Position numbers and translations under genes: made by a program. A DNA stretch of 64,000 nucleotides from Balanoglossus misakiensis (taxonomy: Eukaryota > Animalia > Hemichordata). The notes under the pieces were generated by a model. The model made no database searches, was not told the DNA's origin, and saw only the letters and a list, made by a program, of their open reading frames with translations. The stretch covers positions 3,146,303 through 3,210,302 of the forward strand of contig CM082582.2 in the NCBI GenBank assembly GCA_040954595.2, written 5' to 3'. Shown piece after piece: positions 18,383 through 49,928 of the stretch. Every line of letters starts with the position of its first letter. Position 1 is the first letter of the stretch.

Positions 18383-18557
18383 GATGCACCTCCGGTCTGA
18401 TAGATAAAAAGGAATCCATGTTTAAATCTAACATTTCAGATGCACAGTAAGATGGGCAATTATACCAGATGGATTCTGCCACCCGACAATTACATTACTT
18501 GGTGGGTTTTTTTGTCAGACATTGACACTGCAAAGATCAATTATTACAAAATCTTTG

Positions 18558-18735
18558 TACAGTCAAACCTGTGTTAGCGACCACCTCTATATAGTGGCCA
18601 CTATGTTACGGTCCCTGTGCAATTTACAAATTACACATGCATTAATTGACCTCTCTATAAGGACCACCTGTCTATAAAGGCCAGTTTATGAAAGTCCCTT
18701 GACTCGCCACTAAATACACAGTCAGGTTTGACAGT
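18558..18735. mobile_element. Tc1/mariner-like MITE (ta-CAGTCAAACCTG termini)
   Basis: tacagtcaaacctg ... caggtttgacagta. Related copies at ~4990-5133 and, inverted, ~43098-43240. Confidence 0.65.
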
Positions 18736-19257: not shown

Positions 19258-19967
19258 CTAAAGAATGTCTCTCATATCATAAACAAATTTCAATCCATGT
19301 TCCTCGGCTTTCTCAGTAACTTCTCGATCAAAAAATTCATTTTGCGCGACAGTGAAGTGTTTTCCAATCACCGACTTGACCTCTGCGCTGGTGACGAGCA
19401 TCATCTGGAAAGGAATGTGTGTCCGCGCCAACCATTGAATATTGACAGAAGATTTCCTTCCCTTGACTCATTGCAACAAAACTGCAACTTTCAGCCACTT
19501 TTTCAATTTTCTCATCTGACTTCGGACGATCCAGAAAATCTGTGATCTGGCACAACACAGATTTCAAATCTCTCTTCATATCTTCAAATGTGACGTGTAC
19601 TACGTAGCACATTGTCCTGCTGGGCGTATCGTTTCCATGCCAACACATGATCCAACCAAGAGCCGTACAACACTCTTCCCTGAACGAAAGCCTTAACCCA
19701 GTCGTTCCAATTCAAATCCATCTCGATCCAGGGATTGATTTCATATAGCTATAATACGACACGCATACATCTTTTGGATTTCTGGCCACTGTGGTATAAC
19801 TTTACACATCTTTTCACCTTTGACCCATGACTTTGAGAATAACTGTAGAAGAAGATGGCAGAATAATAACCTTGGTGACGTCATCTTCTGCAAGGATGTC
19901 TTCACAGCCTTTGCATGTTCACCATACATACCAGGTATATGATCAGCGTCCTCGTAAAGTAGGTCAA
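19258..19967 (-). pseudogene. Cytosolic sulfotransferase, 3' part (intronless, frameshifted)
   Basis: SPRLLFCHL, NWNDWVKAFVQGRVLYGSWLDHVLAW, VTFEDMKRDL...QITDFL, CSFVAM, RRGQVGDWK motifs spread over several frames. Confidence 0.85.
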
Positions 19968-20183
19968 CGCCAACGTGGACACAACCACTGTGTTGTCAGA
20001 CACCAGCAAAGACTACAACCAGGCACGTAAGGTCAATAACACGAACGGTTTTATTACGAACGCACTACGCCGCTAGTTACAAGATGGCGGACGAGCAGAG
20101 AGAGAGAGACACACGCCACAGGCAAAGCATTGTGGGTAGTGAGGCCAAGGGTCAAACCACTAACAACTAACATAGTGGCGCAA
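19968..20183 (-). repeat. 3' LTR of element A
   Basis: Direct repeat of 34511-34726, preceded on the minus strand by purine tract aaaaaaaaaggacagaagaaaagtgg. Exact termini ambiguous by a few bp. Confidence 0.88.
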
Positions 20184-20529
20184 CCACTTTTCTTCTGTCC
20201 TTTTTTTTTGAAGAAAAACAATGAACATGAGCAGAATCTGCGGAGGCACATTGCGATGCCAGGGTAAACTCAATAAAGCAGAAACTAAACAGTTTCACAT
20301 GATGAAGTAGACAAAGTGGCAATAACACAAAAGCATGGAAAAACTGTCCCCAAATACAAATATGAAGAAATAGGTGCAAACTGTCCCAAAATAAAGTCCT
20401 GTAAGTCCTTTGGGGTACGACATCCGGCCTTTCAGCTGCCGCTCCGTCTGGCTGGTCAAGTGGGGGGATGGTGATTTTAGGTGAAAGGCCACACCCGTCA
20501 GTCTAGTACAAAGGTGGAGGTGACAACGT

Positions 20530-21165
20530 CTATGTAATGCCAACAACCAAGTAACAGTCACGGGGCTGTATTTTCCTGTGATCTGAACGGGGGTAGACCA
20601 GGTCGTCTACATCAAGTGCAGGCGCCGCTGTAAAAATGTCAAGTGGAGCCTTCGTGTATTCACTGAACTGGTGGTCACCGAGATGCATAGTGCGCAGATC
20701 GCCTATCTGCTTGTGGTTGAAGATGGGTAGCTGAGTGTGGTCCAACTGATCCGCTTGCATCCGTATCGTATGTGTAGGCCGACCTGCGTTGACATAAACA
20801 TTGGCAACAGCAAGCAACGGTAGTGTGACGGTGGCACGAAGTGGGACTAGACGTACAAGCTCGTCCTGGAATTCTTGGATGGCTCTGTCGGATGCTGGAT
20901 TCCTGTTTCGGTTTTCAACACACCCCATTTGGACGATGAGGTTGTGCAAGCCGCCTTTTGTTGAAGTCGCAACTCCCGGAGCAGGGTTAGGTCTGATGAC
21001 TGTGGGCAGGCCGTCAACTGGGTCTACCTCCTGCTTGGTGACGTCAGTGGCAAAGACAATGCCAACGATCTCTGGATCTTCCGGATGAGCAACCACACCT
21101 GTTCCCTCATGGATCTGGTGTTGAGGTACTTTCAACTGCTCGTGCGAGTACGGGGGACGCTGGCC
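20530..21165 (-). pseudogene. Degenerate pol remnant of element A (pre-RT segment fused to the distal integrase region)
   Basis: VIRPNPAPG...NRNPASDRAIQEFQDEL...DQLDHTQLP...DDLVYPRSDHRKIQPRDCYLVVGI resembles a Gypsy integrase C-half. No RT YxDD or RNase H motifs anywhere in A. Confidence 0.65.
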
Positions 21166-21169
21166 ATTG

Positions 21170-21464
21170 TGTGGTATTTCTGGAGAAAACCTCACCTGGA
21201 GTATACCAGTGCCTGGAGATTCCTGTGGAAATGCTGATTAGGTGGTGACCCTTATGTGACCTGTCACGTGACCCCGTGAAGGTTATATATAACACCGTGG
21301 GACCGGAAGTCGGGGTTCTCTCTCGTCTCGTCCATGGTCTGGTGCTACACGCTCTACTTGTTCTGGACCCGGACCGCCTGCACGCACTCAACTAGGTGAG
21401 TATGCGTTACGGGCATTGACTAGGGAAACCTTTCCGTGGCGTTGAAGTTGGGGAAAACGCTACA
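21170..21464 (+). repeat. 5' LTR of element B (295 bp)
   Basis: tgtggtatttc...cgctaca; TATA-like ttatatataa at ~21283. Confidence 0.97.
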
Positions 21465-21465
21465 T

Positions 21466-21479
21466 TGGCGCTGCGAGCA
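21466..21479 (+). promoter_or_regulatory. Primer binding site of element B (tRNA-Ser-like)
   Basis: TGGCGCTGCGAGCA one base after the LTR. It is complementary to a tRNA 3' end ...TGCTCGCAGCG-CCA; the tRNA identity is from memory. Confidence 0.8.
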
Positions 21480-21512
21480 ACTTCTTCCCTGCGGAATTTT
21501 TGAGGGGATTGG

Positions 21513-21518
21513 GTAAGT
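21513..21518 (+). promoter_or_regulatory. Candidate splice donor in the leader of element B
   Basis: tgg|GTAAGT consensus ~35 nt downstream of the PBS. A second candidate tag|GTGAGT lies at ~21396 within the LTR. Confidence 0.55.
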
Positions 21519-23118
21519 ACAAGACTCATTGTTTTCGGGCGGAAAAAGTAAAAAGAAAAAAATTACCCGGAGACTGTGGTGTTTCTGTACTGGTGCTCAT
21601 CGGTGAATTTGATTAGCTTGTGTGGTTTACCTGAGTGAGCAGATTTTCCGTATCACCAAAGGATCTCAAGTAATTGTGTTGGAAGTGAAAGTGTGTGCGG
21701 GAATTTGTTTATTTAGTTTCGGGTTTTTTTGTACTTGAGTTTGGGAATTCTTGTCATTCGTGAAACCTAGAACTTTCCGGTGCAGCGTTTGTGTGTAGTT
21801 TTTCATGCGTTTTGTTGAATTAAATCTTCCTGTGTCGGCATTTGTGTGGATTATTTACTGCATTTTTGTCGGACGATACGGTCGCTGGGACGGCGATTGT
21901 GGCGGTTTCGTTTCATTGCTTCGCACTGGTTTTTCTTTGGCGATACTGGCGAAACTACGTCTTTATTGGCCGGGAATTTCCTTTGTGCTGTAGGTGTTTG
22001 CGGAGCCGTTTTCAATTATCTATCGGTACCGTTCTCGGCGTTTCTTGTGCGACCTTTTGTATTTTTGTTCTCGGGGTTTTTCTTCAAGAAAACACCTGTA
22101 GCGGGAGCGCGGCATTTGTATATTGGAGGAATTCTTTGGGGACATCTGTGCAGTTTGTCGTACGGTTACGTGTCGGGATTATTTTTGAAAGCATTTCGCT
22201 GAGAGATTGCATAACATTTGTGGAGCGGGAATTTTTCTTTGAATAGCGTTTGACGCGGGAATTCGATCATTCTTGTGCAAATTTACCTACCACCTGGTTA
22301 TTTGAATTTTAGTTTGAAGCGTTGACTCTGTTGTTACTGGATATCTTCGTTATTGTTGCATATTTCTGGGATAGCTTAGATATTTCCAGTACTAAAAAAA
22401 AAAAAAAAACGACCAACAAATATAACAGGTCGAAAATATTGTTACGTTCTAGTAATAAAAAAACGACAAATATAACAGGTCAATAATTTCTTCTATCACT
22501 GAGAGCATTTTCCTTGTGGGTCATTTGGGTAATATTGCAGTAGTGATAATTTGTGGTCATCCTGAAAGTGGGTGATCGCATATCACAATTACTGCAAGGA
22601 TTCAGGAGATTTCTACCACTGTTAGGGTCCTGCAATTCGTGCTTGTATCCAAGAGTGTAGGAATTTTTTCTGTGCAATTGTTTCGGCCTTTTTGAAAAAA
22701 AAAAGTCTTCCCACGAGAAAAACAGCACTTGTCCCTTTTCCCTGTACTGAATTTATCGAGTTTCTTCAAGTTTTTGAGAAGCTTTGAAATTGATTAGAAT
22801 TGGGGATTTGGATCTGTGTCGTCACTTTATTCAAGTTCGTGGAGAAATCTGTGGCTTGTGTGATTGCATAGTGACACTTCGCTTGATTTTTCCGAATTTC
22901 TTGGCTTTTTGGCGACTTGTCTAAATTTAGATTGAATTCAGTTAGTAACATATAGATTTTCCAAGTTTACTAGTTAGACTTGTGTAAATCTATTAACTGA
23001 TAGTTTTCTCAAGTTTAAAGAAGATTTCTAGATTTGTTTAAACATATCAGAGGGTAATTTAATTTGCTCAAGTTTTTGCATCCAAGGCTTGTGTAAATTA
23101 AGATTGTGAATTGTGACA

Positions 23119-25152
23119 ATGGCTAAGGTGTACATTAACCACTGTACTTTGGATGAGTTGATTACCATCTATGGGATTGGAAGAGCATCGGCCAAAACCT
23201 TGCTAACTGAACGAGAACGGATGGGAAACCTTACATGGGAACATGTTATGGCCCTGCCCCACATCAGCATCTCGGAAGATTTCAAGGCTCGTGTCGATTT
23301 TTCACCGTTCGGGCCGCCATCCGATGTGGAATTGGAGGATGCAAGCTTCATGGTTTCACCGGCTAAGCTGCCCGAACCTCCAGCAACCCCAAGGTCATCG
23401 CGGAGGGATCCTACCATCGATAACGTGGTAAAGAAGATTGATGAGTTATCCATGCCACCGTCATCAAGGAGGAGTGTTGTGCGTGGTCTGGATGGTCCTG
23501 GGTCGGATGTTGGACAGATGTCATTTGATGATGATTTTGCGTGCGCGGGCCCAGCGGTCATGGTCCCACCAGGGTCTGCAATTGCTGCACCATCCGTCGC
23601 GTTCACTCCAGCATCCGGAACGGTTCCTAGAAGATCACTGCGTACACCACAAGTCACCGGCAGCACTCCACCGATGGAAACGATGACGACCTCTGCGCTG
23701 CCCACTTATGCACGACAATCAGCTCCGGTGGTTAATACCCCATGGTCACATTCTCGTTCGCAATCACCTGTTCCAGCTGCACCAGGAACTGTTGTGACCC
23801 CTTCCGCTTTTCAGCAATCGGTGCCTGTGACTGGACACCCCCGGGGTGTTCCACCATCGGTTCCGTATTGTGGAGAGCGGTCTGGCCCACAAACCTCCTC
23901 TGTCCAGTGGCATTTTGTTCCATCGTTGGGTGGGTATTTTCCTGTCACCCTACCACCGATGGTGGCGCAATCCTATACTGGTCATCCTATAGCTCACCCT
24001 GGAATGCCATCATCATCTGTGCATGGCAGTGCACCGCATACATTCACCCAGGGTTTACATTCATTGGATAGAACAGCTAATCCGCCTATGAATGTTCCGT
24101 CTGCAACTTCGCAGCACTTTGGATCGGGTGACCGGGCATATGGGTTGACACCAGGCATGCTTGCTGGAACATCTTCAAGACAGAATGTTCATTCCGAAAA
24201 TACCCTTCCAAGAATCCATGCACCAAGACATCAGGGGGCAGACGCTATCCAACCCCGGCATTTCCCCAAAAATCTGTATTTTAATGGGGAGGGAAGTTGG
24301 AAATCCTTTGTCATGAGATTTTCCAAATATGCAACTTCCCAGGGTTGGTCAGCCGATGTACGACGTGAGCAACTGTGCTGGTGTCTGGATGGAGAAGCTG
24401 GGGACTGTTACACCATCATTCTGGAGAACGAACCGAATATTCGTTACATGGATCTGTTGCTCAAACTGGAGCAACGCTTTGGTTATAAAGAACTGCCAGA
24501 GACAGCCCATTTGGATTTCCTGCAACAGAAACAGGAACCCAACGAGCCTCTGAACAAATGGGCTGATAGGATCCTAACTGTAGCTACCAACGCATACAGC
24601 AGAGTATCCGATTCGTTTATGATGGAACAGGCTGTTTTACGTTTTTGTCAGGGGTGTATTGACAAGCACGCTGGGCAGTATGCCGCCAATAACTACCCTC
24701 GGTCGATGGAACAGGCTATCAACCTAATAAAATGGCATCAATACAATCGCCGAGCCATTTTTGACCGACCACCACCACCTCGGGTTCGGTATGTAAGCCA
24801 GGATTCTCCTCAGACCGGGGAGGAAGCTATTGAGGTAAAAGCCGTGTCTACCACCCCTCCAGGGACGTCAAAGCAGGCCTCTCCCATTGGTGAACTGGAG
24901 CGACGGATGTCACGAATGGAGCGCCACCTAACGGACCTTACATCTACCTTAAATAAGATGGCTCTTCAACTTGAGGGTTTGGTTAGTGCACGATCAAGAT
25001 CTCCTTCTCCCAGTAGGTCCAACTGCTACCGCTGCGGAAAACCTGGACATTTTCAACGGGACTGCACTGCCTCACCTTCACGTCGCTTCACCTCCCCAGA
25101 GCGTAGGGTATCCTTTTCGGAACCCCCAAACGGGAAGGGGTCCATAGATTAG
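23119..25152 (+). CDS. gag: Gag with N-terminal ComEA-like helix-hairpin-helix, Pro/Ser-rich linker, capsid region and CCHC knuckle
   Basis: INHCTLDELITIYGIGRASAKTLLTERERMG (HhH-like); FNGEGSWKSFVMRF...CLDGEAG...LEQRFG...QEPNEPL (capsid); CYRCGKPGHFQRDC. Confidence 0.93.
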   Translation: MAKVYINHCTLDELITIYGIGRASAKTLLTERERMGNLTWEHVMALPHISISEDFKARVDFSPFGPPSDVELEDASFMVSPAKLPEPPATPRSSRRDPTIDNVVKKIDELSMPPSSRRSVVRGLDGPGSDVGQMSFDDDFACAGPAVMVPPGSAIAAPSVAFTPASGTVPRRSLRTPQVTGSTPPMETMTTSALPTYARQSAPVVNTPWSHSRSQSPVPAAPGTVVTPSAFQQSVPVTGHPRGVPPSVPYCGERSGPQTSSVQWHFVPSLGGYFPVTLPPMVAQSYTGHPIAHPGMPSSSVHGSAPHTFTQGLHSLDRTANPPMNVPSATSQHFGSGDRAYGLTPGMLAGTSSRQNVHSENTLPRIHAPRHQGADAIQPRHFPKNLYFNGEGSWKSFVMRFSKYATSQGWSADVRREQLCWCLDGEAGDCYTIILENEPNIRYMDLLLKLEQRFGYKELPETAHLDFLQQKQEPNEPLNKWADRILTVATNAYSRVSDSFMMEQAVLRFCQGCIDKHAGQYAANNYPRSMEQAINLIKWHQYNRRAIFDRPPPPRVRYVSQDSPQTGEEAIEVKAVSTTPPGTSKQASPIGELERRMSRMERHLTDLTSTLNKMALQLEGLVSARSRSPSPSRSNCYRCGKPGHFQRDCTASPSRRFTSPERRVSFSEPPNGKGSID

Positions 25153-25183
25153 GCCTGGAGGTGACCCCCAGATCGACAGGCCA
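25125..25183 (+). promoter_or_regulatory. -1 ribosomal frameshift signal (slippery heptamer plus putative pseudoknot)
   Basis: C CCA AAC in gag phase at 25125-25131; pol is in the -1 frame; stems GGGGTC/GACCCC and GGCCTG/CAGGCC cross each other. Confidence 0.7.
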
Positions 25184-28100
25184 CCACCATCATAGTGATG
25201 TTATCCCTTCATCCATCCAAAAGAGCGGGGTGTTTCCTCCAGAGGTAACTCGGAAGGAGCGCCACGTTTTGAGGGTGGTAGGAGACGGTAACATTGCGTT
25301 GTCTTCCGTAGATGGGGTTAACGATTCACATGAATTGTTAACTATTTGTCAATTGCGTTCCGGTAAAATGTACCGCGTTCCACTTCGGATACAAGGACAT
25401 GATACCCAAGCGATAATTGATACCGCTTCGGAAGTAACTATCATTTCTGATAAGTTCTTTGACCAGTTAGATGTTAAACCGCCCATTATTAACCAAGTGA
25501 CCTTCCAAACTGCCGGAAGGGAGCTGAAGATGAAGGGGTTTTTGGTGGGTCCGGTTGACATCCGATTGGGAAAAGGTCTATACTCGGAGCGAGTCTATGT
25601 GGCTCCCATTGAGGACGAAATGCTCCTAGGCATCGACTTTGTTAGGTCTCATGGGGTCCATCTAGATTTACTCAACAACATTCTTCGGATTGAGGATGAA
25701 ATAATACCCTTGCAGTTTGGTACAGTAATAGGGGAACCCAAGATTGCAAAAGTCTCTCTCTTGCATAGGGTAAGGATCCCACCAAATACTGTAATTAGAC
25801 TGCCATGTGCTATGCGTGACTCCATGTCTGAGTATGTGGTTGAATCAACAGAAGATCTACTGGTAATGATACCACGTACACTCCATTCAGGAGGACAGAC
25901 ACCTAAAGTTTGCATAGTCAACCCTACTGATGAGTTTGTGACCCTTCGAAGAGGCAAGGTCATCGCTCATGCGGTAGAGGTAGGGGCTGTTTCACTTCAA
26001 CCTGTCGAATCCAAGGAAAGGAACGGAGAAACAGAGAAGGACGAAATCCCTGTACATCTTCATGATCTCTTGGAGAGGTCTGGCATCCATCTACAAGATG
26101 AAGAAAAAGCTCGAGTGCAAGATCTACTTATCGAGTATGAAGATGTGTTTGCCAAAACCGAATTTGATCTGGGGAACTTCACCACCATTCAACATCAGAT
26201 CGACACCGGTGATTCCAAGCCAGTCAAACAGCGGATGCGCCGGACACCCATGTGTTTTGCGCAGGAAGAAGAGGCACATCTTCAAAAGATGCTAGATGCA
26301 GGGGTTATCCAACCTTCTATTTCCGAGTGGGCTTCTGCTCCAGTACTAGTGAGAAAACGTGATGGGGGAGTTCGTTGGTGTGTCGATTATCGTGCATTAA
26401 ATGATCACACGACCAAAGATGTCTACCCTCTACCTCTGATTGAAGAATGTCTGGATACATTGGCAGGACAAACGTGGTTTTCAAAATTGGATGCAAACTC
26501 AGCATATTGGCAGATTAGAATCAAGGAAGAAGACCAGAAGAAAACTGCCTTCACCACCAAATATGGTTTGTTTGAATTCAATAGAATGCCCTTTGGTCTC
26601 TGCAATGCTCCAGCCACATTCTCCAGAGTCATCAATCTAGTACTCAGAGGTCTTACTTGGGATATCGTGTTAGCCTTCATTGATGACATTCTCGTGCTTG
26701 GGACTTCATTCGACAACCATCTGACCTACTTGCGGAAAGTTTTTGATCGACTGCGTCACTACCAACTAAAACTGAAACCCAAGAAGTGCGATCTCTTTCA
26801 AAGAGAAGTCGTCTTCTTGGGGCGCATCATCAGGAACGGCAATGTGGAGTTGGATAAAAGTTCCATTCGAGCAGTCAAGGATTGGCCCGTACCTAAGAAC
26901 ACCAAAGATGTTGAGAAGTTTTTGGGATTGGCCAATTACCATCGAGCTTTCATCAAAGATTTCGCTAATACGGCTGTTCCTCTCTATGGTGTTACCGGGA
27001 AAAGAGCTTTCATTTGGGGTCAGGAACAACAGCAGGCTTTTGACACATTGAAAGAGGCTTTGTTGTCTGCCCCTGTGCTCGCTTTGCCCAGCAACACCGA
27101 TCCTTTTATTTTAGATACCGATGCATCGGACTTCGCCATTGGAGCTGAATTATTGCAATTGCAGAATGGGGAGGAAAAAGTAATTTCTTATGGAAGTTAT
27201 GCCCTTACCCCTGAGCAACGACGCTATTGTACTACCAGGAAGGAGCTGCTAGCAGAGGTACGGTTTACTCGCCAGTACCGTCATTTTCTGTTGGGGAACC
27301 AATTTACTATCAGAACCGACCATAGCAGTCTTGTCTGGCTCCTACGGTTCAAGGACCCCCAAGGACAACTGGCGAGGTGGCTGGAAGAACTTAGCCAATA
27401 CAACATGACCGTACAACACCGACCTGGGAAGAAGCACAGTAACGCCGATGCTTTATCACGCCAGCCCCATGGTGAAGTTTGCTGCGATTTTTCCATCGAA
27501 GTTAGACCAGGAAATCTACCCTGTGGGGGATGTTACTACTGTACTCGTGCACATGACAATTGGGCTCGTTTTACCAGTGATGTGGATGATGTAGTACCAC
27601 TAGTCTCATTTCCTTATCAGGGCAAGGACACCGAATCGACCCTCAAGGTTGCTCAACTGCAAGTCACCAACCAGTTTCCAAAATGGCCATGGGAATCGGA
27701 TTTCATCTGCTGGGATCCTTTATCTCCTGAGGATGGTACTATTAGTGACCTGGATACTATGTACCCCTCAGTTGAGATAATTAAAACCGTATCCTCCCCA
27801 AAATGTTGTGTTGTTACACGGTTTCACCAAGACACCCAAGGCAGCACCTTTTTGGGGTATACGACCAAAGAAATCGGTCAGGCCCAGCAACAGGATGCAG
27901 ATCTGATTTTTCTGTGGCCATGGCTTACATCGAAAGTGGAACCAAGCAGTAATGAGATATTCTTGTCTTCTCCAGCAGCCAAGTATTATTGGATTAACAG
28001 GGATATCTTCTTTATTGAAAATGGGACCATATGGAGGAAACTGGATGACAGTGTGACCCTGGTTGTGCCCAGATCGCTGCAGTTGGAGGTCATGGAGTTA

Positions 28101-29360
28101 AATCACAACATTCCTGCTGCAGGACATCAGGGGATTACCAGGACTCAAGCCAAACTCAGGGAGAAATATTTCTGGTATGGTATGTCTCGAGATATCAACC
28201 GGTTTATTACTTCTTGTAGTGTCTGTGCAACTAGCAAGAAACCTGTGCGTCGATCCCGATTCCCGTTAACCAAGTTCCATGCTGGCGCCCCTATGGAGCG
28301 TGTCCATCTGGATTTCCTGGGCCCACTACCTCAAACAGCACGAGGGAATGAGTGTGTTCTTGTAATGGTTGACCAGTTCACGAAATGGGTGGAGTGCATA
28401 CCACTTCCATCCCAAACCGCGGAAATAACAGCACATGCAGCCGTGGAAAACTTCTTTTCGCGATTTGGTTATCCATTTGAGATCTGCACTGACCAGGGCG
28501 CTAACTTCGAGAGTAAACTGTTCTCCGCAATTTGTGACGTGCTACACATTCACAAGACCCGGACTACACCCTACCGGCCCTCCGCAAATGGACAAGTGGA
28601 GCGGGCCAACAGAAGTATAATGGATGCAGTTCGATGTTTTGTGGACAAAACTCAGCGAAACTGGGATGTGTATCTATCACAAATTGCTGGAGCTCTCCGG
28701 TCCTGTATCAATAGACATACAGGATTCACCCCCAATAAGCTAATGCTTGGTCGTGAAGTCAATCAACCTTCCGACCTCGTATTTGGCTTATCATCAGTCA
28801 AAGGTAAGGATCCGCAGGACCATGTCTGTGAGCTTGAGTCCGCTATCAAGCTTGCGCATGAGATAGCAAGGACCAAACTTCAATCTACCCAAGAAGTAAT
28901 GAAGAGGAATTATGATTTAAGGGTAAACCTTTATTCTTACGAGGTAGGGAATTGCGTTTACATGCTTGAATCTGCAGTAGGAAAAGGGAAAAGCCGGAAA
29001 TTAAGTCGTCCGTGGAAAGGACCTGGGATTATAATCAACAAGTTAACACCATACTTGTATAAGGTAAAATTCCAGCGGGCCATAGTAACTGCCCACCATG
29101 ATCGGCTTAAGCTATGTCGGAGCCGAGACCTGCCCCAATGGGTCATGAGGTATCAAGAAAATCTCAAACGGCATAGTACAGGTAAGGCAGAGATCGCCGA
29201 TGTATCATCGACACTATATTGTGTTTGTCGGAAGCCCTATCGTGGTGAGTTCATGATCCAGTGTGATGCTTGCTCGGAGTGGTACCATGGACACTGCGTT
29301 GGGGTGACGACCAGGGATGCGCGGAGGATTTCTGTTTATACTTGTCCGGCATGTTCTTAA
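25161..29360 (+). CDS. pol: Pol polyprotein: protease, RT, RNase H, integrase, C-terminal PHD finger
   Basis: AIIDTASE (PR); VDYRALN, MPFGL, FIDD (RT); LDTDAS, RKELLA, RTDH (RH); H-x6-H...CSVC, HLDF, TDQG, NGQVER (IN); YCVCRKPY...MIQCDACSEWYHGHCVG...YTCPAC (PHD). No stops in 1399 codons. Confidence 0.97.
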   Translation: MTPRSTGHHHHSDVIPSSIQKSGVFPPEVTRKERHVLRVVGDGNIALSSVDGVNDSHELLTICQLRSGKMYRVPLRIQGHDTQAIIDTASEVTIISDKFFDQLDVKPPIINQVTFQTAGRELKMKGFLVGPVDIRLGKGLYSERVYVAPIEDEMLLGIDFVRSHGVHLDLLNNILRIEDEIIPLQFGTVIGEPKIAKVSLLHRVRIPPNTVIRLPCAMRDSMSEYVVESTEDLLVMIPRTLHSGGQTPKVCIVNPTDEFVTLRRGKVIAHAVEVGAVSLQPVESKERNGETEKDEIPVHLHDLLERSGIHLQDEEKARVQDLLIEYEDVFAKTEFDLGNFTTIQHQIDTGDSKPVKQRMRRTPMCFAQEEEAHLQKMLDAGVIQPSISEWASAPVLVRKRDGGVRWCVDYRALNDHTTKDVYPLPLIEECLDTLAGQTWFSKLDANSAYWQIRIKEEDQKKTAFTTKYGLFEFNRMPFGLCNAPATFSRVINLVLRGLTWDIVLAFIDDILVLGTSFDNHLTYLRKVFDRLRHYQLKLKPKKCDLFQREVVFLGRIIRNGNVELDKSSIRAVKDWPVPKNTKDVEKFLGLANYHRAFIKDFANTAVPLYGVTGKRAFIWGQEQQQAFDTLKEALLSAPVLALPSNTDPFILDTDASDFAIGAELLQLQNGEEKVISYGSYALTPEQRRYCTTRKELLAEVRFTRQYRHFLLGNQFTIRTDHSSLVWLLRFKDPQGQLARWLEELSQYNMTVQHRPGKKHSNADALSRQPHGEVCCDFSIEVRPGNLPCGGCYYCTRAHDNWARFTSDVDDVVPLVSFPYQGKDTESTLKVAQLQVTNQFPKWPWESDFICWDPLSPEDGTISDLDTMYPSVEIIKTVSSPKCCVVTRFHQDTQGSTFLGYTTKEIGQAQQQDADLIFLWPWLTSKVEPSSNEIFLSSPAAKYYWINRDIFFIENGTIWRKLDDSVTLVVPRSLQLEVMELNHNIPAAGHQGITRTQAKLREKYFWYGMSRDINRFITSCSVCATSKKPVRRSRFPLTKFHAGAPMERVHLDFLGPLPQTARGNECVLVMVDQFTKWVECIPLPSQTAEITAHAAVENFFSRFGYPFEICTDQGANFESKLFSAICDVLHIHKTRTTPYRPSANGQVERANRSIMDAVRCFVDKTQRNWDVYLSQIAGALRSCINRHTGFTPNKLMLGREVNQPSDLVFGLSSVKGKDPQDHVCELESAIKLAHEIARTKLQSTQEVMKRNYDLRVNLYSYEVGNCVYMLESAVGKGKSRKLSRPWKGPGIIINKLTPYLYKVKFQRAIVTAHHDRLKLCRSRDLPQWVMRYQENLKRHSTGKAEIADVSSTLYCVCRKPYRGEFMIQCDACSEWYHGHCVGVTTRDARRISVYTCPACS

Positions 29361-29389
29361 TCTATTGTCTTTCTCTTCATTGTCCACAG
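29355..29389 (+). promoter_or_regulatory. Splice acceptor in front of ORF3
   Basis: cttaat (branch-like) + ctattgtctttctcttcattgtcca (polypyrimidine) + CAG at 29387-29389, followed by ac-ATG-g at 29392. Confidence 0.65.
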
Positions 29390-29391
29390 AC

Positions 29392-31761
29392 ATGGCTTCT
29401 TCGTCTCCTCCCCCTGACTCACCCAAGCGCCAATGGAAGGAGGTCGCTCCGACTGGTCCAAGTGCCGCTCGCCAGCGTCTTAGCCAGGAGATATCCGATG
29501 CTACCACCAATGACTTCCTTTGGCAAGTTCGGGAGCTCGTCAATGGCATCGGGGTTATCTCCATGGGACCTGACCGGTCTGTGGCACAGGGCCAGGAGCT
29601 CCTGATCGGTCAATACACCATAGCAGCCCGGAGGAAGCGATGGGGATGGATCAGAGCCCTGCGCAAAGACGTCGATCTTTGCCTTGGTTTTGATCGCGCT
29701 TGGATTGATGAACATCTTCCTCATCCAAATCCAAGAGAAAACACTTGGTCTGCTCCCCAAAGGTCCAAGAAGTCGGCTTCGTATGAAGTTCCACCTGATG
29801 GTATGTACCGGGACTTCCGTCTTCAGGACCCTGAGCAAGTGGAAAGATGGCAGCGGGAGTCTGTGCACTCAGATATCCCGCAAGAGGTGCTGCCCGCAGC
29901 ACCTCTGCCAGACGTCCAACGCGCTCGGGGGCCGGGGGCGGGGGAACTGGTATGTCCACCGGTTGGATCCATACCGGAGGTGCAACCGGTGTTGGTCTCT
30001 GCCCCGGTGGAGGCAGCGCCGGAAGTACTTCCTGCGCCTATGGAAACGGCTAGCCCGCAACGAGGACCAGCGGTGAGGAAGGCTGTGGTGGCAACCGGCC
30101 GGGGTAAGAAGAAGTCCAGTAAAGGCAAGAAGGGGAAGGGGGTTCTGAATCAGCCTCCTGTTGGCTCCGCAGGGAGTCAGCGGGTGCAACGATCTGGCCC
30201 TCTTTCTCTGGTCGGACCCTTTAGTGAGGCTTTTCTCCCGGTTGGTTTAGGGCAACCCCCTCTCGTTCCTCTTCCCCCAGGCTACCTTGGAATACCGCCG
30301 GCAGGTCATGTTCATTTTCCCTTGCCGGAGTGCACGGAGGTAACTGTGGACCTCAGGGCTCATGTCTTGGGTAAGCATGTTCCTCCGGTACTCCGGGGTG
30401 ATCATCCTTTCGAGGCTTGGAGAGTGTTCCATGCTTTGGGCATTCTTCATTCCTGGATTGTTGGGGGATCACCAGGTTCACCGGCCATGAGCTTGTTGGT
30501 TTATTTCAAGCGGTTTGGCCATGTCTTTCTTCCGCCGGTTTCATCGGTAGAGGAAGAGTATTTTCCTTTGATGCATCAGCTATGTAGGGATTTGGGGTGG
30601 GAGCCCATGCTACGGTTTGGACTCCACCCGCCAAATTCTCCCGCTGTACTCGTTCACTGGAGAGTGCTCTTGGTTTTGCTGGGTTTTCTTTCTCCTTTGC
30701 AGAGAGCGGAGTTTGCATGCCTCTTCAGCGGGGATCGGCAGATTCTGCAGGCCAAGAAAACCAAGCAGAGCCATCCTCTGCCCAGGAAGTCGTGCACTGT
30801 GTCCCGATCACAGGAAGTGCAAGATTTGATTGCCTCGGCAACTGCTTCTGCTTCAGGGAGCCAGAGTTTGGATGTAGGTCCTCACCCGACTAAGTCTAAG
30901 GGTAAGGTGAAATGCGTTGGCAGTGCGGCTTCGCCACTAGGAGCCTTTGATTCTCATTTTCATTTGGATCGATTGACTTCTTCGTGGCGGGGTACTGTCA
31001 CCCGCGTGACATCGGACGTAGTGGTCTCCTCCCCTTCCATGCTGAAATCCCTGACGGGGATTCCCGTATTGGGTGGGGTGGAGGTTTACTGTGACCCTAC
31101 GACTTTTCCCACCAATCTTTCCCGGAGTAAGCGTTGGAAAATTGCTGTGGGAATACATCCCAAACAGGCGGCAACACTGACTGGAAATCGACTGGAGAAG
31201 TTCAAGGAATTAATCCAATCCCCTCAGGTGGCAGCAGTTGGGGAGGTTGGGTTAGATTTCTCTGTTGCGGCAGACAAATGGCCCCTCCAGGAGACCGTGT
31301 TCAGGTTGGCCCTTTCCCTGTGTGATCCACGGAAGGTCCTGGTTCTGCACATCAGAGGAGCTACGGGAGATGTGTGTATTGCTGCTGTCGGGCGTAGGGC
31401 TCTTGAACTCGTTCGTGAGTACTGCGCCAGTGAGCAGTTGATCCACTTCCATGGCTTCACTGGAGATCGTTTTGTGGTCGAGTGCTGGATCAGGGATTAT
31501 CCGTACTGTTACTTCAGCTTTAATGCTGGTGTTAACACTTTTTCTACCCCTCAGCTTGAAGCACTCAGGGCGGTGCCAGAGGATCGTCTTCTCTTGGAGA
31601 CGGACTCCCCGTACTTCCCTGTGGCCAATGGTGCCAAGCCCAACACTCCAGCCTTTATCGGAGATGTTGCTGTCCTGGTTGCGGCGCGGCGGGGGATACC
31701 TCTGAACCAACTACTGGAAGCTGCTGCCAACAACACCAGGCGCTTGTACGGCTTCGACTGA
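29392..31761 (+). CDS. ORF3: unknown N-terminal domains plus C-terminal TatD-family nuclease (~30940-31761)
   Basis: TatD motifs in order: FDSHFHLD, AVGIHP, AVGEVGLDFS, LVLHIRG, IHFHGFTG, YFSF, VPEDRLLLETDSPY, NTP, NTRRLYG. Lies between pol and the PPT/3' LTR. Confidence 0.93.
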   Translation: MASSSPPPDSPKRQWKEVAPTGPSAARQRLSQEISDATTNDFLWQVRELVNGIGVISMGPDRSVAQGQELLIGQYTIAARRKRWGWIRALRKDVDLCLGFDRAWIDEHLPHPNPRENTWSAPQRSKKSASYEVPPDGMYRDFRLQDPEQVERWQRESVHSDIPQEVLPAAPLPDVQRARGPGAGELVCPPVGSIPEVQPVLVSAPVEAAPEVLPAPMETASPQRGPAVRKAVVATGRGKKKSSKGKKGKGVLNQPPVGSAGSQRVQRSGPLSLVGPFSEAFLPVGLGQPPLVPLPPGYLGIPPAGHVHFPLPECTEVTVDLRAHVLGKHVPPVLRGDHPFEAWRVFHALGILHSWIVGGSPGSPAMSLLVYFKRFGHVFLPPVSSVEEEYFPLMHQLCRDLGWEPMLRFGLHPPNSPAVLVHWRVLLVLLGFLSPLQRAEFACLFSGDRQILQAKKTKQSHPLPRKSCTVSRSQEVQDLIASATASASGSQSLDVGPHPTKSKGKVKCVGSAASPLGAFDSHFHLDRLTSSWRGTVTRVTSDVVVSSPSMLKSLTGIPVLGGVEVYCDPTTFPTNLSRSKRWKIAVGIHPKQAATLTGNRLEKFKELIQSPQVAAVGEVGLDFSVAADKWPLQETVFRLALSLCDPRKVLVLHIRGATGDVCIAAVGRRALELVREYCASEQLIHFHGFTGDRFVVECWIRDYPYCYFSFNAGVNTFSTPQLEALRAVPEDRLLLETDSPYFPVANGAKPNTPAFIGDVAVLVAARRGIPLNQLLEAAANNTRRLYGFD

Positions 31762-32142
31762 ACGGGTAATCTTTGGGGGGGTCCTAGGCTGCAGTATTGG
31801 TGTTAGACTGTGAAATCCATATTACATCCGGAGCTGCCTTCCATGGGTCTTTCCCTTTTATCTGGGCCCACGCCACTGGGGATATTTTTGCTTGTTGATT
31901 TTTGTTACTTCCGGTCCCTCCCCAGTGGCAGTAAAATTGTGTTTGCCACCATCGTGTAAGAATCGATCTCGACGGTATGGCTCTAAAAAGTCCCCAAAAG
32001 AGAAAAAAGAAAAACGTGCCATATCCCGGATTGATTCGAATCGGCTGTTCTGTCCATAATCATCTAACCATCTATGAAAGGAATCTCCCAGTTTCCAGAG
32101 ATCCACACGGAACCCATCGCTTCAGAAGAAAACAGGGGAGAG

Positions 32143-32437
32143 TGTGGTATTTCTGGAGAAAACCTCACCTGGAGTATACCAGTGCCTGGAGATTCCTGTG
32201 GAAATGCTGATTAGGTGGTGACCCTTATGTGACCTGTCACGTGACCCCGTGAAGGTTATATATAACACCGTGGGACCGGAAGTCGGGGTTCTCTCTCGTC
32301 TCGTCCATGGTCTGGTGCTACACGCTCTACTTGTTCTGGACCCGGACCGCCTGCACGCACTCAACTAGGTGAGTATGCGTTACGGGCATTGACTAGGGAA
32401 ACCTTTCTGTGGCGTTGAAGTTGGGGAAAACGCTACA
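32143..32437 (+). repeat. 3' LTR of element B (295 bp)
   Basis: Matches the 5' LTR except tttccgtggc/tttctgtggc; preceded by PPT agaagaaaacaggggagag. Confidence 0.97.
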
Positions 32438-32441
32438 ATTG

Positions 32442-33215
32442 TGCTGCTGGGGTTGAACCGGACATGTGATCCCTGTAGCCTTGAAAGGATCGGGCTGGAC
32501 GTTGTAGCAACTGACGGTAGGATTGGGCACTTCGTCATTGTGATCTGGTGGCATTCCGTCTTCATCCAGCGTAATGGTGGATGAGCAACATCCTGTTGAC
32601 TGGCTGGTGTTAATGACTGGCTGTGTGTCTGCATGAACATCACCATCTGTTGGCGGTACGAAAACCGGGGATATTTGACTCAAGTGTTCAGTGTGTGGCA
32701 TGGTATGAGATCCGCCTGTCACGTTGGGGGTATGCAAAGCTCTCCCTGACAGTCGCCTGTTGCTAGGGAGCGTGTCAGAACGTGGCTCAAAGGTATACAC
32801 ATTGGTGATGTCCTCTAGTTCCTGTGGCATTTCCACAGCCGTGAAGCCACGCACCATTCTGGACTCCTGAGGTGCTTGGGTGACGATTGTGCGGCGTATG
32901 GCATGTTGTGCCGGACCTGGTGAGCCATATGTATATGTGGACCCACTACCCAGGGTTATTTGTCGCGTGGCTGGGCGCAAGCCGACGTCATTAGCGTCCA
33001 TGAAAGGTATGCCTGCGAGGACTTCCGCATCGAGGCTTTCAGTTACCAGTCCCTCAAACGTAAATTGCGCGTCATCACGGGTGAAAGTGAATCTGGTCTC
33101 GCCGATGACGGTGAGAGCTGAAGACCCATCGGCCTGGCGAGCGGACTGTGAGGTTGCCTGGATAGGAACGCCGAGGCGCTTCGCAGTGGAGAGCCGTATC
33201 ATGTTCGCACTGTGT
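32442..33215 (-). pseudogene. Protease/pol 5' remnant of element A
   Basis: [16 protein letters not shown]...QADGSSALTVIGET...EVLAGIPFM is retropepsin-like, but the catalytic D(S/T)G is missing at the frame change near 33210. Confidence 0.7.
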
Positions 33216-34338
33216 GACGATTGTAGCACGCATCGAGGTAAGGAGACTGGCGCACTTGGACTCTGGATATAGGGGGACGGCACACTTGCACTCTGGATAT
33301 GGAGGGACCAGCCTTCATGTCATCATCTGAAGACTCAGAGTCAAGTCGATGCATTTCGTCAGGGTCATTGTCAATGATACTCGCGATGCGACGCGCCTTG
33401 GTCATGAATCTGCGGTCTTCATCTGGCAAAAACTTGCAAACGCTGAGGAAATGGTCATCAGGGCGCCCCGTTTGTTTACATAATGGGCAGGAACGGTACT
33501 GTCGCCGGTCTCGTTTGGGTTTGGGGGAGTCAACTACACCACCATTGGAGCGATCATCCCAAGTGTCACTATCTTTCTGAGACGTGAAGCGGTTGCGTGA
33601 TGCAGCAGCTCGCAAAACAGTCACCTCCTCCATAGATCTGATTTCATCTAAAAGGGACGATAGGGCCTGTGATATTTCTGGCTTGATTGAAGCAAGTGTA
33701 CGTGTGCGAAGCTCAGTTCCATATCTCTGCTTCACCAATCTTGGTAGGTCTTTATGGATGAGCTGTAGCCATCGAAGGATAATGTAATTTTCCAACGAGG
33801 GGGAGAGTTCTTCATCCTCCATTATTTTGTCTCCGTGGTGGGTGATGCTGCTGTCCTTTCGGAGGAGATTGTCCTCAGCAAAAGCAGTCAATCGCTGAAA
33901 CAGGTCCTCAGGGCGTTCACCTGGCTCGAGGCGAATATCGCAAAAATCGAGTAGATGGGCACCGGTCGACTGAAAACCATAATGGAGGCGGACAGTTTGC
34001 CATATGTTGTCAAGGGATGTGGACTTCTGAACAATGGTGTTACGGGCAATGATGGGACAGAAATTAGCTATCTGTCCAAGCATGAGTTCCAATGCAGATG
34101 CTTTCTGTTGTGCAGTACGGCGTTTGGGAGTTGGAACAGGTTCCCCATCATCTGTAAATCCTCTATGAACGACGGACTTGGATTTCTTTCCCCATGTGGC
34201 GCCCTCTTCCAGGAAAGGGGAGAAATTAGTGTCCAGGGACAAAGTATAAATCAAGTTCTGGCGCCAACTCTCAAATGATGTAATAGTTTCAGACTTACTT
34301 AAGCACCATTGCTTAGGCGCTCGCTGCACGCCCGCCAT
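33199..34338 (-). CDS. gag: Gag-like protein of element A
   Basis: 379-aa open frame from ATG, 160 bp downstream of the PBS; [14 protein letters not shown]-like capsid motif ([16 protein letters not shown]) and [18 protein letters not shown] knuckle variant. Confidence 0.8.
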
Positions 34339-34510
34339 GTTTAAACACTGAGGCAGGTTTTCTCGACGAAATGTGACTTCAAGTTACGCATGTGTAACTC
34401 ACTGGCTGTACACCTATGTGTGTTGAAGTCCTACTGTGACTGAATGTTCAGCAACTGGAAATTACCGTATTGTTGCCGATGACGAGGGTAGATGATCGAC
34501 GCTGCCACCA

Positions 34511-34726
34511 CGTCAACGTGGACACAACCACTGTGTTGTCAGACACCAGCAAAGACTACAACCAGGCACGTAAGGTCGATAACACGAACGGTTTTATTAC
34601 GAACGCACTACGCCGCTAGTTACAAGATGGCGGACGAGCAGAGAGAGAGACACACACGCCACAGGCAAAGCATTGTGGGTAGTGAGGCCAAGGGTCAAAC
34701 CACTAACAACTAACATAGTGGCGCAA
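34511..34726 (-). repeat. 5' LTR of element A
   Basis: Direct repeat of 19968-20183, followed on the minus strand by PBS TGGTGGCAGCG. Confidence 0.88.
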
Positions 34727-34955
34727 GGCGCACTGTTTTCTTTGTGGCTGGCAGTAAGAAATTGAGGTCACTATACATGCTAGTTAAGGCCTTCAACATC
34801 CAGTATGTTCCTGATTTGATATACGTCACAATGATGATATCGTCGTGTCTTACGTCCCATGTGTCTATCGGATTGGTCTGTACGGTCTCTATGTTATGGA
34901 CACAGTTTATGAAGTAACAACCGTTGTAGAAGAAACCTGGCCATTCCTTCGCCAT
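34727..34955 (-). pseudogene. Cytosolic sulfotransferase, 5' part
   Basis: MAKEW...WDVRHDDIIIVTYIKSGTYW (5'-PSB motif). Joins in frame to DLLYEDAD...SPRLLFCHL at 19967 when element A is removed. Confidence 0.85.
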
Positions 34956-35179
34956 TGTGTTTATTGTACTGTCCAAAGCATGAAGTGAAAAGAACAATTT
35001 ACAGTGCAGACCCATTGACCCTTGCTTGTCAGATAGGCCTAGGAAATATTGAGGGCGCTATTCACTTGTAACATGTCATAGACGATCGTCGCCCTTTAAT
35101 CCACATTCGTCCCAGAGATTTCCTTTTGTATAAACCACGTGGTACGTATTTGATTTAACCAGTGATTGTTATCCTGACA

Positions 35180-49744: not shown

Positions 49745-49928
49745 AATTGGATGAAATCTAGACTACTGTATCAAATACTTAGCTTGGCTGTTCTCTTCTA
49801 CATGATCTAAAACATATCTCTCCCATTTGTGGCCAGATCCAAATTTTGTAGTGTTTGGGAATACCAGTCTGGCGCCCTCATGAGATGTTGGAGAGTATAT
49901 TATGGTTGCTAGGGAGTATTGATGGAAA

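Follow-up and report, generated by a model that had tools for sequence, protein, structure and literature searches.

An intact Ty3/Gypsy copy nested in an older LTR element

The window (the whole 64,000-nucleotide stretch of Balanoglossus misakiensis DNA analysed here) contains at positions 21170–32437 a young and intact Ty3/Gypsy copy. It is delimited by the following features.

21166..21169, unstranded: target-site duplication, left copy, 4 nt
21170..21464, + strand: 5′ LTR, 295 nt, TG...CA, with a TATA-like box at 21284
21466..21479, + strand: primer-binding-like site, beginning TGGCG
32134..32142, + strand: polypurine tract, directly before the 3′ LTR
32143..32437, + strand: 3′ LTR, 295 nt
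32438..32441, unstranded: target-site duplication, right copy, 4 nt, identical to the left
19967..34726, − strand: outer LTR element hosting the insertion, with 217-nt repeats (3 differences) and a gag-like frame at 33199–34383; context only

The LTRs differ at one of 295 nucleotides, at LTR position 266, and the 95% interval for their divergence derived from this one difference reaches 1.9%. On re-examination the LTR coordinates, the single difference and the perfect target-site duplication were exactly as originally predicted, as was the claim that all frames are open over about 8.6 kb, since gag, pol and ORF3 are uninterrupted across 23119–31761. The element has the protease, reverse transcriptase (RT), RNase H and integrase order of Ty3/Gypsy, TG...CA LTRs, a primer-binding site, a polypurine tract, a short target-site duplication and a Gag with capsid and CCHC regions. 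A TGGCG site after the CA end recurs in four of eight relatives, and no tRNA genes were found within the window.

The copy is nested inside an older LTR element that splits a sulfotransferase gene, shown here as interrupted. The broader claim that nearly every surrounding host gene is broken is not supported, as the window has an open 477-aa zinc-finger frame, an open 1488-aa LRR frame and further open, domain-bearing frames. The insertion site of this copy, inside another retrotransposon, has no obvious promoter, which counts against the model favoured below. An empty-site joint (21165 to 32438) is present in contigs of public runs X1 and X2; these runs are one sample, possibly from the source individual, and the joint, for which further copies of the outer element are another possible source, does not establish insertion polymorphism.

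A helix-hairpin-helix module in Gag

The first open reading frame encodes Gag and ends in a predicted frameshift region.

23119..25152, + strand: gag, 677 aa, with an N-terminal helix-hairpin-helix (HhH), a long Pro/Ser linker, a capsid-like region (PNMA match) and a CCHC knuckle
23125..23304, + strand: ComEA/EEPD1-type HhH at the Gag N terminus, assigned from Pfam, relatives and alignment
25125..25182, + strand: predicted −1 frameshift signal, with the slippery heptamer at 25125–25131 and an H-type pseudoknot at 25137–25182

The original prediction that each reading frame carries a non-canonical module is clear in Pfam for the PHD finger and TatD domain described below; the HhH is weak in this copy and is upheld by relatives. 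Here HHH_3 (PF12836) matches Gag with E 0.008 and 16.7 bits against a Pfam cut-off of 27, and it exceeds that cut-off in the Gag of 5/9 relatives. The GIG hairpin aligns between this copy and its relatives, in one of which (L098) the best matches of the HhH are EEPD1 and ComEA. The Gag HhH is likely to bind DNA. Evidence for a capsid comes from the PNMA and zf-CCHC matches here and from weak Ty3_capsid and Retrotrans_gag matches in relatives.

The slippery heptamer lies in gag phase in 8/8 elements, with similar stems in all eight. The pseudoknot stems of this copy taken alone were equalled by 19 of 100 shuffled sequences, and a stem-loop after its slippery site was no better than in shuffles (z −0.45).

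Pol ends in a PHD finger resembling H3K4me3 readers

25107..29360, + strand: pol, a 1417-codon frame encoding protease, RT, RNase H, integrase and PHD, with catalytic motifs present
29220..29354, + strand: PHD finger at the integrase C terminus

The PHD finger, which exceeds the Pfam cut-off (E 1.3e-9), forms the last 46 residues of Pol; no chromodomain, the hallmark of chromoviruses, was matched by Pfam at the integrase C terminus. Its best matches in the PDB are the H3K4me3 readers PHF2, BPTF, PHF8, DIDO and CFP1. Of the 120 Pol relatives listed as closest, 114 have a PHD finger, and among these 114 the residues that we take to form the aromatic cage are strongly conserved: Met and Trp occur in all 114 and the leading Tyr/Phe in 111, while the fourth position is aromatic in only 42. 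This copy retains the zinc ligands and, under the same assumed assignment, all cage positions. From these matches and residues we predict that the finger reads H3K4me3 and hence active-gene chromatin.

ORF3 is probably expressed from a spliced message

29369..29389, + strand: predicted splice acceptor, a pyrimidine tract plus AG, 2 nt upstream of the ORF3 start codon
29392..31761, + strand: ORF3, 789 aa, with a helical N-domain, a disordered linker, a zinc-finger-plus-helical middle domain and TatD
29458..29742, + strand: ORF3 N-domain, a five-helix bundle with no specific fold match
30304..30726, + strand: ORF3 middle domain, a C2H2-like finger plus helices, confidently predicted
30946..31752, + strand: TatD domain, HxH (group II), with H522, H524, E618, H653, H687, E736 and D738
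21396..21401, + strand: predicted splice donor in the 5′ LTR, the sole strict-consensus match between 21170 and the gag start

Pfam detected only TatD in ORF3 of this copy and no envelope glycoprotein of the kind that marks env-bearing Gypsy elements. The ORF3 domains are predicted to be helical and soluble, and the linkers evolve fast. For the N-domain, Foldseek returned nothing at E 0.001 from the PDB or BFVD, and the best match, VIA (Z 8.5, rmsd 3.8, 100 aligned), stands among generic helical bundles. For the middle domain Foldseek was empty, the best PDB match has Z 3.9 (rmsd 4.3, 82 aligned), which does not in itself prove a new fold, and every match in the ESM Atlas was below 0.9. Alignments show that this copy has not kept the family's first zinc-ligand column in the middle domain.

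A predicted acceptor precedes ORF3 in 12/12 elements, compared with 45/937 control ATGs (a 5% background), by criteria set after the sites had been seen and, for element L100, at a start codon picked among several. Donor-like sites lie near the LTR in 4/8 relatives when a loose pattern is used. ORF3 is therefore likely to be a separate protein, made from its own spliced message. With such signals, ORF3 would be made apart from Gag-Pol, not cleaved out of it, and would not necessarily come into contact with the cDNA.

The TatD domain retains a group II active site

The TatD domain matches Pfam with E 1.1e-37 and has the HxH motif and the Glu, His, His, Glu and Asp residues of group II. All seven metal or catalytic residues are intact in this copy and in 124/140 full TatD domains; ligands have been lost in the other 16, and the two HxH histidines are present in 139 and 133 of the 140. 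The nearest solved structures are YcfH-type DNases. The element domain falls below every NCBIfam cut-off and forms its own long-branch clade against 79 bacterial TatD sequences (support 0.915). RNase H motifs are found in the pol of this element, so TatD does not replace a missing function.

Some 51 residues ahead of the first catalytic Glu, 115/140 family members, this copy among them, have a Cys; at that column Cys is outside the six commonest residues of the 79 bacterial sequences. We tentatively equate it with TATDN2 C538, which lies 55 residues before E593, by spacing and a motif that we presume to be equivalent. The second TATDN2 cysteine (C656), found in 118/140 relatives and absent from this copy, is also common in bacterial TatD (69/79) and so is not diagnostic of TATDN2. 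By its HxH group, this first Cys and a long N-terminal extension, the element protein may be as close to TATDN2, an R-loop RNase, as to an enzyme that trims DNA. Passages of PMC10711561 report minimal activity of TATDN2 on plain RNA:DNA duplexes, a point against the clean-up role proposed below.

The original prediction had joined the three modules into one system, in which HhH binds cDNA, PHD tethers integration to marked chromatin and TatD trims or clears DNA. Sequence has added support to the chromatin role of the PHD finger, whereas the ORF3 signals would put TatD outside Gag-Pol. In its full form this reading has TatD recruited to the particle or intasome, where it would trim 3′ ends, cut DNA at abasic sites or clean up integration gaps; this strikes us as rather unlikely. 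Passages of PMC10085689 describe group II TatD enzymes as 3′–5′ ssDNA exonucleases and AP endonucleases, and TATDN1/3 and the E. coli paralogs as DNA exonucleases and AP endonucleases, which would suit it, as would the YcfH-type structural neighbours. A sea-urchin gene model that fuses HhH-gag to ORF3, in frame and at the ORF3 start codon, would if real bring TatD into particles. By contrast, each of the 12 elements above provides ORF3 with a start codon and a predicted acceptor of its own, and neither a motif census of 178 ORF3-type proteins nor the domain lists of the 120 Pol relatives revealed a Pol fusion. Integrase, moreover, performs end processing itself. The co-inheritance of the modules described below favours this reading too, but any set of parts carried by a single element should show it.

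Intact ligands on a 3′ exonuclease fold, together with the predicted separate expression of ORF3, would also fit a counter-defence role, in which ORF3 would destroy small RNAs of the host, the precursors of these or immune-stimulating nucleic acids, shielding the element from silencing, with PHD and HhH as unrelated targeting aids. We regard this as unlikely, and piRNA 3′ ends are usually 2′-O-methylated and exonuclease-resistant. The fast-evolving linkers and the two extra domains could nonetheless bind host factors, and bdelloid DEDDy ORF3s are discussed in a small-RNA context in passages of PMC5408684. By analogy with CERV of C. elegans Cer1, which according to parts of PMC10309623 is spliced from the env position and required for genomic RNA export, spliced ORF3 might instead bind unspliced genomic RNA and promote its export or switch splicing, the nuclease being secondary. 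The strong predicted donor and acceptor here would create the same export need and the 16 relatives that have lost ligands could be accommodated, but the complete active site in the other 124 argues for catalysis, and we judge this regulatory role quite improbable.

The three modules are co-inherited across a lineage

In 13 in-clade contigs, PHD was present in 13/13, a downstream TatD in 11 and HhH in 9/9 gag starts. The two contigs that have no TatD are cut off, L099 reaching the ORF3 start and L097 ending after pol. The distant elements L101 and L102 have none of the three modules wherever testable. The same layout was found in 11 other families, and 132 of the 133 in-group tips fall within the span of the 14 elements linked to an ORF3. 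Integrase and TatD distances correlate across 13 elements (Mantel r 0.69, p 1e-4), and the two trees share five clades supported at 0.99 or above in each; their deep nodes differ and are weakly supported. These comparisons confirm that the three add-ons are inherited traits of the lineage and not quirks of one copy, and bear out the earlier proposal of an architecture that transposes as one unit and characterizes a lineage.

Independent gain and loss of the modules, a possibility raised with the original prediction, was not seen across the relatives, and a misassembled chimera is contradicted by contigs from a public run, which span 22466–29006 and 28977–31242; one connects the PHD with the beginning of ORF3 and the initial portion of TatD. 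Chance assembly by either route would account for single gene models short of a module (oyster P0191 has PHD with no HhH found by profile search, and P0277 and P0290 have no PHD). The matching LTRs and target-site duplication, the other families of the same layout and the agreement of the two trees stand against it as well, and we consider it very improbable and already largely refuted.

By its matches the branch is found across aquatic invertebrates, and the range of hosts with the full architecture is judged from indirect links because 11/13 in-clade contigs bear one isolate label. Such links include four equal contig sizes in common between oyster Pol and ORF3 clusters, one in a JGI Pol/ORF3 pair and one in another pair, along with the sea-urchin gene model described above. 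The ORF3 C-terminal region used as a query gave 40 matches, and the low-complexity first 500 residues gave none. A metagenome scan with the TatD alignment returned mostly bacterial TatD, and the one locus among 80 that resembled the element was too short to reveal its context; viral contigs yielded seven TatD loci, all distant, and nothing related to Pol, and the ESM Atlas search yielded TatD clusters only.

A tentative model and its implications

We tentatively favour an intact element of a Ty3/Gypsy lineage that co-inherits a DNA-binding HhH, an H3K4me3-reading PHD finger and a spliced TatD acting as a nuclear clean-up nuclease for RNA:DNA hybrids and further by-products of element activity. 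In this model, full-length RNA would yield Gag and, through the −1 shift, Gag-Pol. The HhH, in place of a matrix domain, would hold the capsid or cDNA on chromatin, and the PHD finger, replacing the chromodomain of chromoviruses, would bias integration towards H3K4me3 chromatin. ORF3, spliced from the LTR donor to the acceptor, would work in trans, its long N-terminal part, as in TATDN2, finding R-loops or hybrids at element loci and its TatD degrading the RNA strand or single-stranded ends. The three modules would serve one life cycle, for which a single complex is not required.

A bolder and more doubtful version is that molluscs, brachiopods, echinoderms and hemichordates carry an old Gypsy lineage that is the mirror image of chromoviruses: it would integrate into active germline chromatin by reading H3K4me3, dock its capsid on DNA by a ComEA-type HhH and manage the resulting hybrids with a captured TATDN2-like R-loop nuclease that bears a domain of undescribed fold, and hundreds of invertebrate 'uncharacterized TatD genes' would be its third gene.

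Targeting devices are known for few animal LTR retrotransposons, and a fixed H3K4me3-type reader on integrase would allow a direct test of promoter-directed integration in oyster and sea urchin, for which genomes and chromatin maps are obtainable. An active site kept in more than 100 divergent TatD sequences indicates a step, in the retrotransposon cycle or in host defence, that the textbook Gypsy element does not have, and ORF3 contributes a predicted, well-folded domain without a PDB match. For annotation, this element probably accounts for many 'TatD' gene models of invertebrates and for some contigs within bacterial MAGs.

Comparison with known systems

The element shares with standard Ty3/Gypsy elements (Metaviridae) the LTRs, primer-binding site, polypurine tract, target-site duplication, CCHC gag, protease–RT–RNase H–integrase pol and −1 frameshift signal, and adds the Gag HhH, the integrase PHD finger and a non-env TatD ORF3. 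The hallmark of the Gmr1 clade, integrase upstream of RT (PMC6238403), is absent, integrase lying downstream of RT in this pol. The RT clade may equal MolGy or another named clade (MolGy1-16, Cigr-1, CsRN1, Mag or PolGy); four supplements of PMC6238403 had no match for PHD, TatD, CGi or either of two RNase H motifs, and the main text of one mollusc and two annelid surveys makes no mention of PHD or TatD. TatD or HhH in an LTR element was not found in the papers searched.

PHD fingers and nuclease ORF3s are already known in other retroelements. Passages of three sources describe a PHD in a Gypsy polyprotein (10.1101/2022.06.16.496473), a PHD C-terminal to a Gypsy-like integrase (PMC2836005) and PHD as a common accessory domain (PMC8557442). 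The PHD-bearing transposons described there, Gypsy-7a_cRei (Chlamydomonas), Ginger1-9_HM, CR1 and Chlamys, share this accessory domain with the element but belong to other hosts and lineages, and TatD or HhH goes unmentioned in those passages; here the PHD is nearly fixed over a large animal LTR clade. The bdelloid Juno/Vesta ORF3s, as described in parts of PMC5408684, likewise encode an enzymatic, non-env protein with a 3′–5′ exonuclease fold and intact catalytic residues. Their DEDDy domain, however, has a different nuclease fold and was gained at least twice in a family-specific manner, whereas TatD dates back to the ancestor of the clade sampled here and is linked with two additional domains.

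With group II TatD proteins (TATDN2, TATDN3, YcfH and YjjV) the element shares the HxH motif and the Glu/Glu/Asp triad, and with TATDN2 a long N-terminal extension, as described in passages of PMC10085689 and PMC10711561; it differs in its separate clade, its zinc-finger middle domain and its location on a retrotransposon. Like CERV in the relevant passages of PMC10309623, ORF3 is a multi-domain third protein at the env position with flexible linkers and a predicted spliced message, but CERV has no enzyme domain. Finally, chromoviruses similarly join a histone-mark reader to the integrase C terminus, and their chromodomains direct insertion into heterochromatin, according to passages of 10.64898/2026.05.21.726589. 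In contrast, the PHD finger here is nearest to H3K4me3 binders, which predicts the opposite target, active chromatin.

Structure and integrity of the element

The Gypsy element carries two 295-nt LTRs with TG...CA termini and has a 4-nt target duplication on both flanks. The 5' LTR is followed by a primer-binding-like site, and the 3' LTR is preceded by a polypurine tract. The original observation of a single LTR mismatch, a perfect target duplication and open gag, pol and ORF3 frames was borne out, the last by an ORF search. The lone LTR difference is compatible with a divergence of up to 1.9%. The insertion lies within an older minus-strand LTR element, whose 217-nt repeats have 3 differences.

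Features of the window
21170–32437, plus strand: Gypsy element (LTRs, target duplication, open frames)
23119–25152, plus strand: gag (open frame; Pfam capsid-like region, CCHC)
25107–29360, plus strand: pol (open frame; Pfam PR-RT-RH-INT, C-terminal PHD)
29392–31761, plus strand: ORF3 (open frame; Pfam TatD)
19337–19711 and 34710–35057, minus strand: sulfotransferase gene interrupted by the outer LTR element (domain search)
45296–49762, minus strand: NLR-like 1488-aa open frame with ~28 LRR_6 repeats (domain search)
53447–54373, minus strand: family 4 glycosyltransferase of conflict systems, close to the LRR gene (PF20706, E 3e-11)
16949–18382: C2H2 zinc-finger exon, open (domain search)
57843–58772: NXPE-family exon, open (domain search)

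These open domain-bearing frames leave the claim that nearly all surrounding host genes are broken unsupported. A short repeat at 18556–18712, with very high read depth and many loose ends in the sequencing runs, is probably a small abundant mobile element.

The alternative that the locus is a mis-assembled chimera fails against contigs assembled from public run X1. Two of them cover 22466–29006 and 28977–31242, with 24 differing letters apiece, and the second runs across the PHD finger, the ORF3 start and the initial portion of TatD. X1 provides an independent assembly, though not necessarily of another animal, and may be the source sample. One X1 contig has a joint that skips 19964–34724. 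An empty-site joint for the Gypsy element itself (21165 to 32438) is present in contigs of both X1 and X2, a second run of the same sample, and may derive from further copies of the outer LTR element.

Conservation of the three modules

Among the best 120 of 1052 Pol relatives examined for domains, PF00628 (PHD) was present in 114, a ranking slightly biased by the PHD in the query, and most of the exceptions terminate in or near a PHD remnant. ORF3 relatives formed 221 clusters (50% identity, E < 1e-30). The named hosts of relatives are molluscs, one brachiopod, sea urchins and one acorn worm. One Pol relative in the clade, P0198, has a Tpt1/KptA RNA 2'-phosphotransferase domain (PF01885, E 4e-43, residues 1065–1234) between integrase and PHD.

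Scanning an integrase-region alignment against genome_contigs yielded 15 loci on animal contigs filed within bacterial MAGs. These are whole animal retrotransposons, some of whose Pol proteins NCBI labels bacterial, and their filing points to host contamination. Thirteen of the loci are close relatives (47–55% identity), and 11 of these share one isolate label, so they are many families from probably one host. PHD was found in 13/13 close loci and TatD 3' of pol in 11/13; of the others, L099 has an ORF3 start followed by the contig end, and the L097 contig stops after pol. L088, L094 and L096 carry a split or partial ORF3. BLAST detected the helix-hairpin-helix (HhH) in 9/9 gag starts and Pfam in 8 (E 0.05), of which 5 exceed the cut-off; the HhH of the window copy scores under the curated value. 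Two distant loci, L101 and L102 (36–39% identity), had no PHD-, HhH- or TatD-type modules where their contigs could show them.

Two further arrangements were seen on these contigs. In L096 (1–11388), a 7761-nt repeat unit retains integrase-PHD and part of ORF3, but neither gag nor RT was matched in it; it may be a non-autonomous deletion form. L101 (8652–9791) has a C2H2 zinc-finger ORF at the ORF3 position of a Gypsy element lacking PHD and HhH.

Equal contig sizes link ORF3 and Pol clusters indirectly in oyster (8316, 8314, 7625, 4927), in one JGI pair (11370) and in one ENA pair (659658). In a sea-urchin gene model, P0357, HhH-gag is fused in frame to ORF3 at the ORF3 start codon; this could be an error of gene prediction, an element with an internal deletion or a product of alternative splicing. 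Speaking against complete fixation of the modules, no HhH was found in oyster model P0191 and no PHD in P0277 or P0290, which may reflect gene-model limits or true losses. Some TatD relatives may be domesticated, genomic context having been seen for a minority.

Co-inheritance of integrase and TatD

We compared trees for 13 elements (the window element, 10 loci and 2 pairs inferred by equal contig size). Integrase and TatD distances were correlated (Mantel r 0.69, p 1e-4), and five clades had support of at least 0.99 in both trees; the deep nodes, with weak support, disagree. In a 135-sequence integrase tree rooted on the two distant loci, the 14 elements linked to an ORF3 together span 132 of the 133 in-group tips, so ORF3 looks ancestral to the sampled clade. 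Across the 13 close loci and both trees, the modules travel together rather than being gained and lost independently. Co-inheritance shows vertical descent and retention, from which cooperation of the modules does not follow. Chance assembly of the modules, set against this pattern, is extremely improbable.

Properties of the modules and a proposed mechanism

The closest solved structures to the PHD are those of PHF2, BPTF, PHF8, DIDO and CFP1 (E 7e-17 to 5e-14), all H3K4me3 readers. The cage has Met and Trp in 114/114 sequences, a leading Tyr or Phe in 111/114 and an aromatic fourth residue in 42/114; all four positions are intact in the window copy. The HhH of L098 matches EEPD1 (E 2e-10) and ComEA, which are non-specific DNA binders.

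ORF3 has a TatD domain of HxH group II, with H522, H524, E618, H653, H687, E736 and D738 present in the window copy and all seven ligand or catalytic residues in 124 of 140 full domains. The element family forms a single long-branch clade separate from 79 bacterial TatD proteins. Several ligands are lost in five long ORF3-type proteins (P0108, P0068, P0119, P0076 and P0173), possible domesticated or pseudo-enzyme forms. Three distant TatD proteins (P0034, P0035 and P0036) branch off outside the main group (support 0.66) and have no detectable N-domain, two of them with a middle domain.

Structure prediction was confident for a five-helix N-domain (residues 23–117) and for a middle domain of zinc finger plus helices (residues 305–445), and fold searches with both gave no specific match. 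Among 83 ORF3 relatives of at least 600 aa, 30 of them outside the training alignment, the middle domain was found in 80 (28/30 outside) and the N-domain in 46 (7/30 outside). The first zinc-ligand column, kept by at least 90% of the family, is not kept in the window copy.

A slippery heptamer in gag phase, with a two-stem pseudoknot pattern 3' of it, was found in 8/8 elements; against 100 shuffles the pattern had zero matches in four of the eight and 19 in the window copy. A pyrimidine tract and YAG lie at most 16 nt from the ORF3 start in 12/12 elements versus 45 of 937 ATGs within pol, under acceptor criteria fixed after the sites were viewed and with one start codon picked among several. 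Together with a predicted consensus splice donor inside the 5' LTR (21396), this conserved acceptor signal suggests that ORF3 is likely made from a subgenomic message and not within Gag-Pol.

The architecture by itself we hold to be very probable. The functions we infer for ORF3, PHD and HhH combine in a tentative scheme, as a whole somewhat short of probable: a particle would be built from Gag and Gag-Pol, HhH would keep the particle or cDNA on chromatin, PHD would tilt integration towards H3K4me3 chromatin, and ORF3 would act in trans as a nuclease on the element's RNA:DNA hybrids, R-loops or single-stranded by-products. The TatD domain might instead trim cDNA or repair gaps, which is unlikely; counter-defence against small RNAs is quite unlikely, and a CERV-like RNA regulator very unlikely.

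Comparison with known systems

Repbase catalogues oyster and sea-urchin Gypsy families. We found no TatD or Gag HhH in an LTR element in the literature covered; Repbase and most subscription papers lie outside that scope, so an earlier annotation may exist. The main text of mollusc and annelid surveys (PMC6238403, PMC8220671, PMC8556966) contains zero occurrences of PHD or TatD, and four supplements of PMC6238403 gave no match. The architecture is real and lineage-wide, as the 13 close loci and trees uphold, and apparently undescribed as an architecture; the lineage may be unnamed, as first proposed, or its RT clade may be one that carries a name already.

Earlier reports describe PHD fingers in Ginger1, Chlamys and CR1 elements and in a Gypsy of Chlamydomonas (10.1101/2022.06.16.496473, PMC2836005, PMC8557442). 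Bdelloid LTR elements include some whose ORF3 encodes an exonuclease (PMC5408684), algae and protists have LTR elements that combine several epigenetic modules (10.64898/2026.05.21.726589), and Cer1 makes a regulator from a spliced message (PMC10309623). Like env and CERV, ORF3 would be made from a subgenomic message, as its sequence signals predict. It resembles TATDN2 in HxH group, long N-terminal extension and a Cys at C538-like spacing, the second Cys not being diagnostic; this likeness is a lead, and TATDN2 is reported to require its long N-terminal extension for R-loop binding (PMC10711561, PMC10085689).
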